Assembly (NCBI RefSeq): GCF_022347785.1
Contig: NZ_JAKRGA010000005.1
Coordinates: forward strand, 163,519 to 227,518
DNA: 64,000 nt
Origin: Psychrobium sp. MM17-31
GTDB taxonomy: Bacteria > Pseudomonadota > Gammaproteobacteria > Enterobacterales > Psychrobiaceae
Direction: 5' to 3'
Positions within the stretch are counted from its first letter, which is position 1. Each line of letters starts with the position of its first letter. The notes below the pieces were generated by a model. The model ran no database searches. It was given only the letters and a program-made list of their open reading frames with translations, and had not been told where the DNA came from. Shown one piece after another: positions 13,550 to 21,783 of this stretch. The translations under genes were made by a program, and so were the position numbers.

Positions 13550-14245
13550 ATGGATATAAAACCGACTATTTTAATTGTTGAAGATGAGCCTAATATTTTA
13601 CGAGGTTTAACCGATCTCTTTATTTTTCATGGTTTTAATGTAGAAAGCGAAACCGATGGCCAGAAGGGTTTAGAGCGAGCGTTAGCAGGTCAGCACGCCT
13701 GTATCATCTTAGATGTAATGCTGCCCTCAATCGATGGTTTTCAGATCTGTGACGCGATTAGACAGCACTCACAAACTCAGCCGATTCTAATGCTCACCGC
13801 CAAGAACACCGAGCAAGACGTTATCAATGGTTTAACCCTAGGCGCCGACGATTACTTAGCAAAGCCCTTTTCAACTGCAGAGTTAGTGTTGCGAGTGACC
13901 GCGTTAATCAGACGTTCGGGAATGACGGCTAATGAATCGCAGCTGGTGATTAATGAACATGTGAATATTTGCACTCAAAAGCTAACGGGCGTGTCGTATC
14001 AAAAAGCCATGAAATACACTCGCCGTGAAGTCGCCATTTTGAGCTATCTCAAGCAAAAGCAGACGCCTGTTTCCCGCGAGGAATTGCTCAAACAAGTCTG
14101 GGATTACAAATCCACCGACCATTTAGATACGCGAACCGTCGACATTCACATTGCTAAACTGAGAAAGAAAATCGAAAGCGATCCAAAATCGCCACGGCAC
14201 TTGGTGACATTTAGAGGTGAGGGGTATCAATTATTAATTGGTTAA
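13550..14245 (+). CDS. OmpR/PhoB-family response regulator
   Basis: It has a receiver domain (ILIVEDE...DVMLP) and a C-terminal winged-helix domain. Confidence 0.9.
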   Translation: MDIKPTILIVEDEPNILRGLTDLFIFHGFNVESETDGQKGLERALAGQHACIILDVMLPSIDGFQICDAIRQHSQTQPILMLTAKNTEQDVINGLTLGADDYLAKPFSTAELVLRVTALIRRSGMTANESQLVINEHVNICTQKLTGVSYQKAMKYTRREVAILSYLKQKQTPVSREELLKQVWDYKSTDHLDTRTVDIHIAKLRKKIESDPKSPRHLVTFRGEGYQLLIG

Positions 14246-14325
14246 CTCGCAATATCAAGCTGTTAGTCAATAATAAACAGCTTCTTAATTATCAACAACG
14301 AATCAAACGATTACGTATTTTAACC

Positions 14326-18985: not shown

Positions 18986-20569
18986 ATGCCTTTTTTACTT
19001 CATGAACTTCTATTTCAACAAGCGTTAAAAACACCTGATGCAAAAGCCCTAGGCTGTAAACAAGATTGGCGCAGTTACCAACAGCTTTCAGAAATATGCC
19101 AGCAATTATGTCGCAGCTTTCAAGCAATAGATGTTAAATACGCAGATCGAGTCGCCATTTATTTACCAAAATCTATCGAATCTGTGGTCAGCTGCCTCGC
19201 TGCCAGTGCAAACGGCAGTATTTTTGTGCCCATTAATCCAGCAGTAAAGTCGACTCAAGTCGCCCATATACTCGCTAATTGTGAAGCCAAAGTGCTCATC
19301 ACAAACCATGCAAGATTGTCTCAAATTGATGAAAATCAGCTAAAGACTGTTGAGCATATTGTACTCATAGATGAGACCAATCTTACTTTTGACGATATAT
19401 CACTATGGCATTGGGATAGCTTTCTAGCTGCTGGAGACAGTGCACCAAACCGCACAAGCGCCCTAGTTCAAACCGATATCGCGGCAATTCTATACACTTC
19501 CGGCAGCACCGGAAATCCCAAAGGTGTGGTGCTAAGCCATCAGAATCTAGTCGTTGGCGCCCAAAGTGTTAGTGACTATTTACCCTGTAAGTCGACAGAC
19601 ATAATGCTAGGCGCGCTGCCACTCAGCTTTGATTATGGCTTTAGTCAAATCACTATTGCCTTCACCACCGGCGCAAGTTGCTACTTAGTAGACTACGTCT
19701 TTCCTCATGAGCTATTTAAGGTGATAGAGCAGCAAGCAATTACCACCATGGCCTTAGTGCCGCCGCTGTGGATTGCACTAGCCAATGAGCCTTGGCCTGA
19801 ACAAGCGACAAAAAACATCCGTTATTTTTGTAACACCGGTGGCAGCATGCCTACTAGCACACTTAGTCAGTTGAGAGACTACATGCCGCAGGCAGAGCCG
19901 TTCTTAATGTATGGTTTAACGGAAGCATTTCGTTCATGTTATTTACCTCCTAGCGAAATAGATAATCGACCAACCTCGTTTGGCCGTGCGATTCCCAATG
20001 CCAATATTTTGGTGATTAACGAACATGGCGAAGAATGTGCACCGCATGAACACGGAGAACTGGTGCATTGCGGCCCCCTTGTCAGCCAAGGATATTGGAA
20101 TGACGCAGCCAAAACCAATCAACGCTTTAAACCATCACCGACTCGTAAGCCTGAGGTGAAAACACCTGAGTTAGCCGTCTGGTCGGGAGATATCGTTACG
20201 CGTGACGAACAAGGCTACTTATATTTTGTCGGCCGCCGTGATGACATGATAAAAACGTCAGGCTATCGCGTTAGCCCACAAGAAATAGAAGATATTATTT
20301 ATCAGCTACCAACGATAAAAGAAGCTGTAGTTACCGGCGTTCCCCATCCAGTATTAGGTCAAGCGCTAATCGCCGTTGTTATACCCAATGGAGATAGCAC
20401 TAGTTGTCATGACATCTTGCGCCACTGCCGCGCGTTGCTTCCTAATTTTATGTTGCCAGTTCAAATATTTATAGTCGATTCACTACCACGTAATCCCAAT
20501 GGAAAATTTGATCGAATTTACTGGCAATCACACTATCAACACTTATTCGCTAATGGATTAAACAAATGA
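18986..20569 (+). CDS. AMP-dependent synthetase/ligase (adenylate-forming)
   Basis: The AMP-binding motif YTSGSTGNPKGV is present. The track ORF begins at a TTG at 18974, and the first ATG (MPFLLHE...) at 18986 is preferred. The upstream stop overlaps this gene by 4 nt. Confidence 0.85.
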   Translation: MPFLLHELLFQQALKTPDAKALGCKQDWRSYQQLSEICQQLCRSFQAIDVKYADRVAIYLPKSIESVVSCLAASANGSIFVPINPAVKSTQVAHILANCEAKVLITNHARLSQIDENQLKTVEHIVLIDETNLTFDDISLWHWDSFLAAGDSAPNRTSALVQTDIAAILYTSGSTGNPKGVVLSHQNLVVGAQSVSDYLPCKSTDIMLGALPLSFDYGFSQITIAFTTGASCYLVDYVFPHELFKVIEQQAITTMALVPPLWIALANEPWPEQATKNIRYFCNTGGSMPTSTLSQLRDYMPQAEPFLMYGLTEAFRSCYLPPSEIDNRPTSFGRAIPNANILVINEHGEECAPHEHGELVHCGPLVSQGYWNDAAKTNQRFKPSPTRKPEVKTPELAVWSGDIVTRDEQGYLYFVGRRDDMIKTSGYRVSPQEIEDIIYQLPTIKEAVVTGVPHPVLGQALIAVVIPNGDSTSCHDILRHCRALLPNFMLPVQIFIVDSLPRNPNGKFDRIYWQSHYQHLFANGLNK

Positions 20570-21783
20570 GTATCCAAAACTTAGATGCAAGTAAAATGGT
20601 CAACGAACTAATCATCGCTGGGAAAACCGCACGCCAAATTACCAATATAGCCGGTGGAACGCCTTGCTATATCTACGATAGTAATCGAGTAAAAAACACG
20701 GTGTACAACCTAAAGTCACAACTGCCGTCACAAGTACATTTGCATTATGCCGTCAAAGCAAACCCGTTTCCGCCGTTAGTTGCTCAAATGGCCAACTGGG
20801 TCGATGGTTTTGATGTTGCCTCGCAAAAAGAGTTATTACTCGCGTTATCGAGTGGCATGCCGAGTCATAAGATTAGTATTGCAGGTCCCGGAAAATCACA
20901 GCGTGATTTACTAACTGCGATCAGCGCTGGTGCAGTAATCAACATCGAATCAGCAACTGAGCTGGTTCGAGTTTATGAACTGTGCAAAGTCCACCAGCTA
21001 AAAGCCTCAATTTCACTGCGAATTAACCCCGATTTCGAACTAAAAAAATCAGGAATGAAAATGGCAGGAGGCTCAAAACCCTTCGGTATTGACGCGGAAC
21101 AAGCGTTAGCAATCTTGAAGAATCTCGATTTAACCCTAGTGAATTTTAAAGGACTACATATTTTTACTGGATCACAAAACCTAGATCACAATGCGATTAT
21201 TGAAGCTCACGATAAAACATTCGATCTCGCTCATCGTTTATTAACGCAAAGCAATATGTCTGCCAGCCAAATCAATATCGGCGGTGGCTTTGGCATTCCA
21301 TACTTTGCCCACGAAGCGCCGTTAAACACGTCACCGATCATAGATAACCTCAACCGCTTAATTAAGCAATATAACAATGCTTTCAATGGCGCGGAAATTC
21401 ACTTAGAACTCGGTCGTTACTTAGTTGGAGAATGCGGCACGTATCTATGTACCATCGTAGACAAAAAAGTGTCGCGTGAGAAAACCTATGTTGTAACCGA
21501 TGGCGGAATGCATCACCACCTAGCCAACTCAGGAAATTTCGGCCAAGTCATTCGCAAAAATTATCCGGTGTTAAATGCTTCAAATGTCGATGGCGATGAC
21601 GCCGAAACTGTCGAAGTTGTAGGGCCTTTATGTACACCTTTAGACATTCTTGCCAACAATATTTCGCTACCAGCATTAAACATCGGCGATCTCTTTGCCG
21701 TCACTCAATCCGGCGCATATGGCGCGAGTGCCAGCCCACACAACTTTCTAAGCCAACCAGAGGTTATTGAATTGATGTTGTAG
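20566..21783 (+). CDS. PLP-dependent decarboxylase of the diaminopimelate/ornithine decarboxylase fold-III family
   Basis: The PLP-lysine motif YAVKANPFPPL is present. An ATGA overlap with the ligase stop indicates translational coupling. Confidence 0.85.
   Translation: MSIQNLDASKMVNELIIAGKTARQITNIAGGTPCYIYDSNRVKNTVYNLKSQLPSQVHLHYAVKANPFPPLVAQMANWVDGFDVASQKELLLALSSGMPSHKISIAGPGKSQRDLLTAISAGAVINIESATELVRVYELCKVHQLKASISLRINPDFELKKSGMKMAGGSKPFGIDAEQALAILKNLDLTLVNFKGLHIFTGSQNLDHNAIIEAHDKTFDLAHRLLTQSNMSASQINIGGGFGIPYFAHEAPLNTSPIIDNLNRLIKQYNNAFNGAEIHLELGRYLVGECGTYLCTIVDKKVSREKTYVVTDGGMHHHLANSGNFGQVIRKNYPVLNASNVDGDDAETVEVVGPLCTPLDILANNISLPALNIGDLFAVTQSGAYGASASPHNFLSQPEVIELML

Follow-up and report, generated by a model that had tools for sequence, protein, structure and literature searches.

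What is made by an operon that encodes, back to back, a small phosphopantetheine carrier protein, an acyltransferase of the lipid A family, an ATP-binding cassette (ABC) exporter, an adenylate-forming ligase and a fold-III pyridoxal phosphate (PLP) decarboxylase? Here we examine five such genes in Psychrobium sp. MM17-31, within a 64,000-nucleotide (nt) stretch of contig NZ_JAKRGA010000005.1 (positions 163,519 to 227,518) that we refer to as the window; they are preceded by genes for a response regulator and a sensor kinase. The combination matches no described system; the original prediction made from this sequence had noted that it fits neither AlmEFG nor the exosortase-associated gene pair exactly. 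We propose that the operon carries out an aminoacylation of lipid A of the AlmEFG kind, using a donor that is decarboxylated while attached to its carrier, and we give this chain of steps, taken as a whole, an even chance of being correct.

Scans against Pfam and NCBIfam upheld the domain assignments predicted for all seven gene products (carrier, transferase, ABC protein, ligase, decarboxylase, regulator and kinase), and the motifs LDSM in the carrier, YTSGSTGNPKGV in the ligase and YAVKANP in the decarboxylase are all present in the translations. The profile comparison suggested with the original prediction, which set exosortase-associated families against DltA-like ones, placed the ligase in TIGR03098 (688.9 bits, cut-off 592.35) and the decarboxylase in TIGR03099 (540.8 bits, cut-off 478.45), whereas the DltA models reached 181-188 bits on the ligase against cut-offs of 476 and 560, so that this enzyme is not of the DltA/AlmE type. 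Its closest relatives of solved structure are adenylation domains of non-ribosomal peptide synthetases (NRPS; LgrA, 263 bits) together with beta-aminoacyl-acyl carrier protein (ACP) synthetases, and it retains the FD-motif Asp, which binds the amine of the substrate. The ligase family is very large: at least 8000 of its 90%-identity clusters score E <= 1e-40.

The decarboxylase is not a diaminopimelate decarboxylase, as it fell short of the cut-off of the LysA model TIGR01048 (238.9 bits against 297.9) and as the best diaminopimelate decarboxylase structure matched it with at most 148 bits, compared with 236 bits (E = 5e-69, residues 31-404) for BtrK, its closest solved relative; ornithine decarboxylase was also far behind BtrK. 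The two proteins have in common the motifs AVKANP, GGGFGIPY, GGMHHH in the substrate loop and GPLCTP(L/E)D, among them those of the PLP lysine and the catalytic Cys, and both GGMHHH and GPLCTP, at which diaminopimelate decarboxylases differ, are invariant in 17 of 17 homologs of the window decarboxylase. BtrK is an L-glutamyl-[BtrI acyl-carrier protein] decarboxylase, which acts on glutamate linked as a thioester to the 87-residue BtrI and produces gamma-aminobutyryl (GABA)-S-BtrI (PMC7857480). The same order of events is described for VinN, a ligase of the acyl-CoA synthetase, NRPS adenylation domain and luciferase (ANL) superfamily that charges the standalone ACP VinL with 3-methylaspartate, with decarboxylation by the PLP enzyme VinO only afterwards, and for FlvN, where the amino acid is aspartate and the outcome a beta-alanyl unit; both amino acids are attached by their side-chain carboxyl (PMC11284099).

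The substrate pocket of the window ligase, hand-mapped in GrsA numbering through the LgrA alignment, reads DYSACTMRSK. At lipid and lipopolysaccharide (LPS)-core loci, homologous ligases follow the pattern D-Y-S-A-C/T-T/S-M-R-S-K, whereas exosortase-associated ones read D-A-S-T-A-T-M-R-S-K, and the positions that never vary across these three contexts (Asp235, Ser239, Met322, Arg330, Ser331 and Lys517) suggest that the substrate is probably the same, or nearly the same, everywhere. The invariant Arg would suit a substrate that still bears a second carboxylate when it is adenylated. Every locus in which the ligase and decarboxylase genes were found has them side by side. We judge it likely that the carrier, ligase and decarboxylase together make an omega-aminoacyl carrier; the donor is probably a beta-alanyl or 4-aminobutyryl group formed by decarboxylation on the carrier, with alpha-aminoadipate and diaminopimelate still admissible as alternative substrates.

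The carrier itself scores 27.4 bits against PF00550, above the gathering score, and all 28 homologous carriers, among them the ones from the exosortase and LPS-core loci, keep the serine of its E(L/F)DSM motif; carriers from all contexts form one family, matching a profile built from them with 87-116 bits. Its gene, preceded by a ribosome-binding site that is a good match (AAGGAGA), overlaps that of the PF03279 transferase, so that the pairing of a DSM-serine carrier with an enzyme of this family that typifies AlmEFG is present in the window.

The transferase scores 83.2 bits against PF03279 (gathering score 22.3) and lies far under all equivalog models for LpxL, LpxM and LpxP, the best reaching 69.6 bits where 248 are required (35 against 298 for TIGR02207 and 18 against 336 for TIGR02208; the cut-offs of the LpxL/LpxM models span 209-540 bits). 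Within its His-X4-Glu motif, H115 is invariant and E120 nearly invariant among homologs; D184, also invariant, aligns with D192 of LpxM, the partner of the catalytic His, and at the position of LpxM R159, which is not kept, the transferase has Ala148. An AlphaFold (AF2) model built from 25 homologs (predicted local distance difference score 94, predicted template modelling (TM) score 0.90) retrieved Acinetobacter LpxM (5kn7) with Foldseek at a TM score of 0.71 and PatA at about 0.68, with nothing else comparable. The model and the conserved residues thus point to a competent acyl-transfer catalyst with the fold of the lipid A late acyltransferases that is not an LpxL or LpxM ortholog. The subfamily is small: 56 clusters at 90% identity in a collection of 5.8 billion proteins, 34 loci among 185,579 species genomes, and only 13 representatives that score more than 200 bits in a set of 1.84 billion. 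Its next-tier relatives (P0309-P0326) proved to be generic PRK08419-like LpxL homologs and to include no specific named family such as AlmG. To our knowledge, AlmG is the sole characterised carrier-dependent aminoacyl transferase of the LpxL fold. Because the constant partner of the window transferase is a dedicated carrier loaded by ligases of amino-acid type, the pair follows the logic of AlmF and AlmG, a resemblance already pointed out in the original prediction.

For the acceptor, the ABC protein is the most informative gene product. It passes the MsbA model TIGR02203 (617.4 bits, cut-off 602), falls short of the equivalog NF008381 (638.9 bits, cut-off 867), and aligns end to end with MsbA of V. 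cholerae (522 bits) and E. coli (516 bits). In E. coli MsbA, Kdo2-lipid A (Kdo, 3-deoxy-D-manno-octulosonic acid) is contacted by R78, R148 and K299 at the interior site and by R188, R238 and K243 at the exterior site (PMC10945598). All six residues are present in the window protein and are kept in 27-30 of 30 cluster-linked homologs, so that what had been predicted as an exporter of an envelope product is a true member of the MsbA family. A near-identical Psychrobium metagenome-assembled genome (MAG; GCA_049607155.1) encodes a second, housekeeping MsbA (P0280), 48% identical to the window ABC, in a canonical msbA-lpxK-ycaR-kdsB operon on another contig than its own copy of the cluster; the cluster ABC is therefore an accessory MsbA paralog that retains an LPS-type binding site. 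In addition, a metagenomic contig (L046:1476-4070) carries a natural fusion of transferase and ABC in one protein of 864 residues (P0219), which belongs to a cluster of six members. The LPS-type site of the accessory ABC and the fusion of the two proteins together make lipid A-core the likeliest acceptor and cargo, and on these sequence features we favour lipid A as the acceptor by a little over an even chance.

Assembled into a pathway, these parts suggest the following. The TIGR03098 ligase would adenylate an acidic amino acid, likeliest Asp or Glu, through its side-chain carboxyl, and would attach it in thioester linkage to the carrier's phosphopantetheine arm. The BtrK-like decarboxylase would then strip the free alpha-carboxyl on the carrier to give beta-alanyl- or 4-aminobutyryl-S-carrier, from which the LpxM-fold transferase, with its His-X4-Glu centre, would move the aminoacyl group to a hydroxyl of (Kdo2-)lipid A at the cytoplasmic face of the inner membrane. 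The accessory MsbA paralog would flip the resulting lipid A-core, now of lower negative charge, to the periplasmic leaflet, and expression would probably be set by an envelope-sensing two-component system. In this scheme the amino acid, the decarboxylation on the carrier, lipid A as acceptor and the regulation by a two-component system are inferred.

The operon is not peculiar to one strain. Its transferase shares 97% identity with the one encoded in the Psychrobium sp. MAG named above (L008), where the nine-gene arrangement is identical. The five-gene order of the window is found again in at least 10 other loci, whose transferases are 51-65% identical to that of the window; they come from Pseudoalteromonas denitrificans, P. 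aurantia, Algicola sagamiensis, MAGs of Colwellia and Alteromonadaceae, and metagenome contigs. Given this recurrence of the same order, the arrangement is not due to chance. Hosts of the transferase are nearly all marine Alteromonadales or Kangiellaceae (Psychrobium, Pseudoalteromonas, Algicola, Colwellia, Thalassotalea, Glaciecola/Brumicola, Paraglaciecola, Parashewanella and Aliikangiella), with a few Betaproteobacteria (Roseateles, Paucibacter and a Rhodocyclaceae MAG). Several variants were found: there is no ABC gene between transferase and ligase in Parashewanella, Glaciecola and Brumicola; ligase and decarboxylase lie 3.4 kb downstream in L017; and Thalassotalea marina, Aliikangiella and others have carrier, transferase and ABC only. 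About 12 loci of Colwellia have a small divergent carrier and a different ligase ahead of this transferase-ABC pair, a set that resembles AlmEFG; the ligase in question is an amino-acid adenylation domain (316 bits to TIGR01733, the next best model being DltA at 248 bits). The Betaproteobacteria have the carrier-transferase pair only, between unrelated genes: the upstream genes (GHL10, a tripartite ATP-independent periplasmic (TRAP) transporter) were rejected as partners, as was a downstream AMP-binding gene, which follows pntAB and encodes an unrelated acyl-CoA synthetase. Comparison of these architectures identifies the carrier and transferase, usually with the ABC, as the invariant core, and the loading enzymes as exchangeable, being of amino-acid type in both forms. 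We also noted that one Colwellia MAG (JAOPTQ01) carries two diverged five-gene clusters on different contigs (L011 and L026), and that on the contig with the natural fusion (L046) the order is carrier gene, fusion gene, then an alpha/beta hydrolase gene and an Acyl_transf_3 gene.

The carrier, ligase and decarboxylase also travel as a trio, which was found in three contexts: the five-gene cluster (to which locus L043 of P. aurantia belongs), an exosortase A locus and an LPS-core locus. In the former of the other two, a genuine exosortase A locus of Marinobacterium aestuarii (L044), a fusion of EpsH and EpsI adjoins the ligase and decarboxylase, and the opposite strand encodes an asparagine-synthase-like protein, an 82-residue carrier and two hydrolases (TIGR03101 and TIGR03100). 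In Endozoicomonas montiporae (L042:10001-14923), the ligase, decarboxylase, an 80-residue carrier and a protein of 284 residues and unknown function are encoded in an LPS core/O-antigen locus that also contains a Kdo kinase gene, a WaaZ-like gene, glycosyltransferase genes and a Wzy_C gene. The 284-residue protein (L042:12804-13658) has no Pfam or NCBIfam match, and a profile comparison rejected it as a relative of the transferase (hhalign probability 0.4%); it could represent an aminoacyl transferase of a new kind. As for the window itself, family scans covered 29 of its 56 open reading frames (ORFs) of at least 120 amino acids, namely all those up to 25.6 kb and ten selected ones beyond (to 49 kb). 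Among the ORFs scanned the cluster lies outside any EpsH/PEP-CTERM polysaccharide context, with no exosortase or exopolysaccharide-synthesis gene, EpsI amidotransferase, paired hydrolases or polysaccharide genes, and none of these genes stand beside the cluster in the Alteromonadales loci inspected. We tentatively suggest, at somewhat less than an even chance, that the trio is a widespread module which loads and then decarboxylates on the carrier, supplying omega-aminoacyl groups (beta-alanyl or GABA-like) to proteobacterial envelope polymers as a Gram-negative counterpart of D-alanylation, and into which different transferases plug: an LpxM-fold enzyme with a private MsbA for lipid A, paired alpha/beta hydrolases for exosortase exopolysaccharide (EPS), and the unknown protein for LPS core. 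Separately, an alpha/beta hydrolase of about 400 residues (Peptidase_S15/Abhydrolase) adjoins the cluster in two loci (L017:14826-16055 and L046:4482-5639); the two are homologous, at 212 bits to each other, and match the exosortase hydrolase model TIGR03100 weakly.

A number of observations weigh against aminoacylation of lipid A by this operon as we propose it. The amino acid is not nameable from sequence, and pocket positions 330 and 331 depend on where a 2-residue gap is placed. No paper on the function of TIGR03098, TIGR03099, this transferase subfamily or the cluster was found in the literature searched. Several loci have the carrier and transferase, with or without the ABC, and no ligase or decarboxylase nearby, which means that coupling in cis is not obligatory, and three loci are without an ABC inside the operon. 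The regulator in the window is only 27-30% identical to the cluster-linked regulators elsewhere and so is not their ortholog. Other points bear on the acceptor in particular: the transferase is only distantly related to LpxL, at 69 bits to the best equivalog model and far under every LpxL/LpxM cut-off; PF03279 enzymes acylate other glycolipids as well, PatA acting on phosphatidylinositol mannosides; and one study reports translocation of phospholipids by MsbA in addition to LPS (PMC8660845). Added to the service of the trio in contexts other than lipid A, exosortase EPS (L044) and LPS core (L042), they would fit the same donor chemistry directed to a different lipid or glycolipid of the envelope (for instance phosphatidylglycerol, a lyso-lipid or LPS core) and exported by the ABC. 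We regard such an acceptor as unlikely, though to be taken seriously, since the window ABC passes TIGR02203, its cluster-linked family keeps the six residues that contact Kdo2-lipid A, the nearest relatives of the transferase are the lipid A late acyltransferases, and AlmG, a carrier-dependent aminoacyl transferase of the same fold, acts on lipid A (PMC4278540).

The donor chemistry invites its own alternatives. The original prediction had the decarboxylase generate the amine or acid substrate; in such a scheme it would act on a free amino acid, for example making GABA from Glu or beta-alanine from Asp, for the ligase to load afterwards. Fold-III decarboxylases mostly act on free substrates, the LysA profile score of 239 bits is substantial, and sequence gives no direct proof of carrier dependence; yet the closest characterised enzyme, the carrier-dependent BtrK, is well ahead of the free-substrate enzymes, VinN/VinO and FlvN systems decarboxylate after loading, the invariant pocket Arg is what one would expect if the extra carboxylate is still present on loading, and the ligase and decarboxylase genes are always adjacent, with a 4-nt ATGA overlap in the window. 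This order of events is most likely not the one used, and we consider it quite improbable. Fatty acylation as by AcpXL/LpxXL, in which the ligase would charge the dedicated carrier with an unusual fatty acid, the transferase would place it on lipid A as a secondary acyl chain and the decarboxylase would be an unrelated enzyme of the lysine pathway, draws on the name "acyl-CoA ligase" given to the ligase family, on the 300-315 bits that long-chain fatty-acid-CoA ligase models score on it, and on the preponderance of fatty acyltransferases among relatives of the transferase. It is very unlikely in view of the amino-acid-type FD Asp and the proximity of the ligase to NRPS adenylation domains, the failure of the decarboxylase at the LysA cut-off and its constant pairing with the ligase, and the Colwellia variant, in which a DltA-like amino-acid ligase accompanies the same transferase. 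Less probable again is a small-molecule pathway, leading to an amphiphilic siderophore or antibiotic exported by the ABC and taken up through the neighbouring TonB-dependent receptor. BtrK and VinO are natural-product enzymes, the related fold-III decarboxylases SbnH, FigC and AcsE belong to siderophore pathways (PMC7857480), and both the window and Thalassotalea marina have such a receptor next to the cluster; on the other side, neither the operon nor its annotated flanks (1-25.6 kb and selected ORFs to 49 kb) encode an NRPS, a polyketide synthase (PKS) or an NRPS-independent siderophore (NIS) synthetase, receptor adjacency is missing from most loci, the exporter retains the LPS-binding residues of MsbA, and elsewhere the trio is found in loci for envelope polysaccharides. 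Least probable of these readings is that the cluster belongs to an exosortase A/PEP-CTERM exopolysaccharide system, as the family names imply: both family cut-offs are passed and the Marinobacterium pair adjoins EpsH/EpsI, against which stand the missing partner genes in the scanned part of the window and beside the cluster in the Alteromonadales inspected.

Returning to aminoacylation of lipid A, control of the operon by the neighbouring sensor kinase, as originally predicted, is plausible by analogy only: the two-component system of the window adjoins the cluster only in Psychrobium (the window and L008), and in other genomes a non-orthologous pair is linked to the cluster. Five other loci from four genera (L015, L017, L026, L034 and L037) encode a PmrA/CopR-like regulator and a PmrB/CpxA-like kinase of about 424 residues, placed directly after the decarboxylase or, in L017, between ABC and ligase. 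These pairs are mutually orthologous (regulators 43-69% identical across genera, kinases 81-366 bits). The kinase of the window has no ortholog among these kinases of about 424 residues, and that of L026 does not match it; the window regulator reaches no NCBIfam equivalog cut-off. Of the two cluster copies in the Colwellia MAG, only one is followed by a PmrAB-like pair. The presence of non-orthologous pairs indicates that two different envelope-type two-component systems became linked to the cluster, which supports signal-dependent expression of the cluster in general and not control by the window kinase specifically.

A second level of control may exist at the carrier gene, where a leader hairpin at 16083-16114 (AATGATCTC...GAGATCATT; -15.9 kcal/mol, z = -3.8, none of 200 shuffles as stable) covers the Shine-Dalgarno sequence with its 3' arm and stops 1 nt before the ATG; from this position we suggest that it may exert translational control. 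Unrelated hairpins occupy a similar position in L009 (z = -5.2) and L029 (z = -4.05), and not all loci have one. A scan of 11000-23000 against Rfam gave no match, and promoter and terminator scans of 13300-22000 found sites in numbers below or no higher than in shuffled sequence. Direct repeats were considered as regulator sites and found unconvincing; between the receptor and regulator genes there is an 18-nt direct repeat of 78% identity (TTYGAGTTAATSA...GGG, at 13404-13421 and 13521-13538), which may be an operator or chance. A link of the TonB-dependent receptor to the system was rejected, as most related loci have no such receptor beside the cluster.

The features of the locus are listed in Table 1. 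All seven genes and the divergent receptor gene were recovered from the ORF list at the positions originally predicted. The tight packing of the five genes was also borne out with either choice of start codons, although two of the junctions depend on that choice: carrier and transferase genes overlap by the predicted 26 nt with a TTG start at 16365 and by only 20 nt with ATG at 16371, and the predicted 4-nt overlap of ABC and ligase genes requires a TTG start at 18974, an ATG at 18986 leaving an 8-nt gap instead. The TIGR03098 match on the ligase begins at residue 8. The other two junctions are as predicted, the stop of the transferase gene abutting the ATG of the ABC gene (17204/17205) and the ligase and decarboxylase genes overlapping in ATGA at 20566-20569. 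A gap of 109 nt separates the kinase gene from the carrier start, the gene at 21861-22625 is convergent so that the operon ends at 21783, and the base composition of the cluster equals that of its flanks.

Table 1. Features of the operon and its immediate surroundings (window coordinates).
Feature	Position	Strand	Remarks
TonB-dependent receptor	11233-13383	-	Plug and beta-barrel domains; divergent from regulator gene; neighbour, probably not part of the system
OmpR-family response regulator	13550-14245	+	Response_reg and Trans_reg_C; candidate operon regulator
Sensor histidine kinase	14326-16005	+	HisKA and HATPase_c, residues 322-541; long N-terminal sensor region
Leader hairpin over carrier-gene Shine-Dalgarno	16083-16114	+	9-bp perfect inverted repeat; possible translational control
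Phosphopantetheine carrier protein, 91 residues	16115-16390	+	PF00550; attachment Ser in ELDSM
LpxL/LpxM-fold acyltransferase	16365-17204	+	PF03279 Lip_A_acyltrans; proposed aminoacyl transferase from carrier to lipid A
MsbA-paralog ABC exporter	17205-18977	+	ABC_membrane and ABC_tran, TIGR02203; proposed flippase for modified lipid A
Adenylate-forming ligase	18974-20569	+	AMP-binding, TIGR03098; proposed to load carrier with acidic amino acid
Fold-III PLP decarboxylase	20566-21783	+	Orn/DAP/Arg decarboxylase domain, TIGR03099, BtrK-like; proposed to act on carrier-bound amino acid

The annotated flanks contain a type I restriction enzyme, a cyclic di-GMP protein and two RNA-repair loci. The restriction endonuclease subunit (NF008521, 1421 bits) belongs to a co-directional run of genes at 964-6871 (minus strand) that also comprises two ORFs without a family match and an NYN-domain protein. 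Downstream of the operon, the convergent gene at 21861-22625 (minus strand) encodes a 254-residue ATPase of AAA_15/AAA_21 type with weak matches to the anti-phage ATPase models PtuA and MAD3, and is followed at 22943-24726 by an rtcB-prfH pair, that is, an RtcB-family RNA ligase (TIGR03073) and peptide chain release factor H (TIGR03072). The second RNA-repair locus (26535-34817) consists of the sigma-54 activator RtcR (33213-34817, plus strand) and, divergent from it and all on the minus strand, a Band7/SPFH protein, RtcB, RtcA, RlaP and two unknown ORFs.

Charge modifications of lipid A govern resistance to cationic peptides and polymyxin and shape recognition by the host. If our proposal is true, the operon represents a new chemical route to such a modification, dependent on a carrier and on decarboxylation upon it, and its product would be a new lipid A modification with a flippase of its own, a rare example of a second lipid A flippase specialised for its substrate. 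It would also offer the first experimental handle on the ligase/decarboxylase pair of exosortase A loci: the TIGR03098 family has been annotated only through its association with exosortase A, and the five-gene operon is a far simpler system than an EPS locus. As the hosts are marine and several of the genera cold-adapted, the modification may serve adaptation of the outer membrane rather than antibiotic resistance.

Among known systems, AlmEFG of V. cholerae provides a close parallel. There, AlmG adds glycine to the hydroxylauryl chain of lipid A, and control is exerted by VprAB/CarRS. A ligase loads the carrier, an enzyme of the LpxL superfamily transfers the amino acid to lipid A, and a two-component system governs the process (PMC4278540). 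The likeness to the window operon lies in a carrier that would be loaded with a small amino acid and in a transferase of the same superfamily, and the Colwellia variant even has a DltA/AlmE-like ligase. The operon differs in its TIGR03098 ligase, in the proposed addition of a BtrK-like editing step and in its dedicated MsbA paralog; it would work alike without being a member, and its transferase is likened to AlmG by family and gene context. With respect to the last component, the window ABC has the architecture of MsbA and all of its interior and exterior LPS-contact residues, yet it differs from MsbA proper in being a second copy, in scoring under the NF008381 cut-off and in lying outside the msbA-lpxK-kdsB context.

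The proposed editing step has its counterpart in butirosin biosynthesis (BtrI/BtrJ/BtrK/BtrH), where a fold-III PLP enzyme decarboxylates a carrier-bound acidic amino acid to an omega-aminoacyl thioester. The acyltransferase BtrH then moves the omega-aminoacyl group to an aminoglycoside, the acceptor in that pathway, and further tailoring follows; the loading enzyme BtrJ belongs to the ATP-grasp ligases and not to the ANL superfamily. The transferases of the two systems are unrelated. VinN/VinL/VinO (vicenistatin) and FlvN/FlvO (fluvirucin) come closer in following the same three-protein logic of ANL loader, standalone ACP and PLP decarboxylase, although these are polyketide pathways of actinomycetes whose product primes a PKS, whereas that of the window is proposed for an envelope lipid, and the likeness is one of enzyme logic. 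By score, the window ligase and decarboxylase are the TIGR03098/TIGR03099 pair of exosortase A loci, where a homologous carrier is also present; the partners there are the TIGR03100 and TIGR03101 hydrolases and not an LpxM-fold transferase and an MsbA paralog. Finally, the Dlt system of Gram-positive bacteria reduces surface charge by D-alanylation of an anionic polymer of the envelope, also by way of a carrier protein, and differs in using another ligase subfamily, a membrane-bound O-acyltransferase (MBOAT), DltB, as transferase and another acceptor, with no decarboxylation step.

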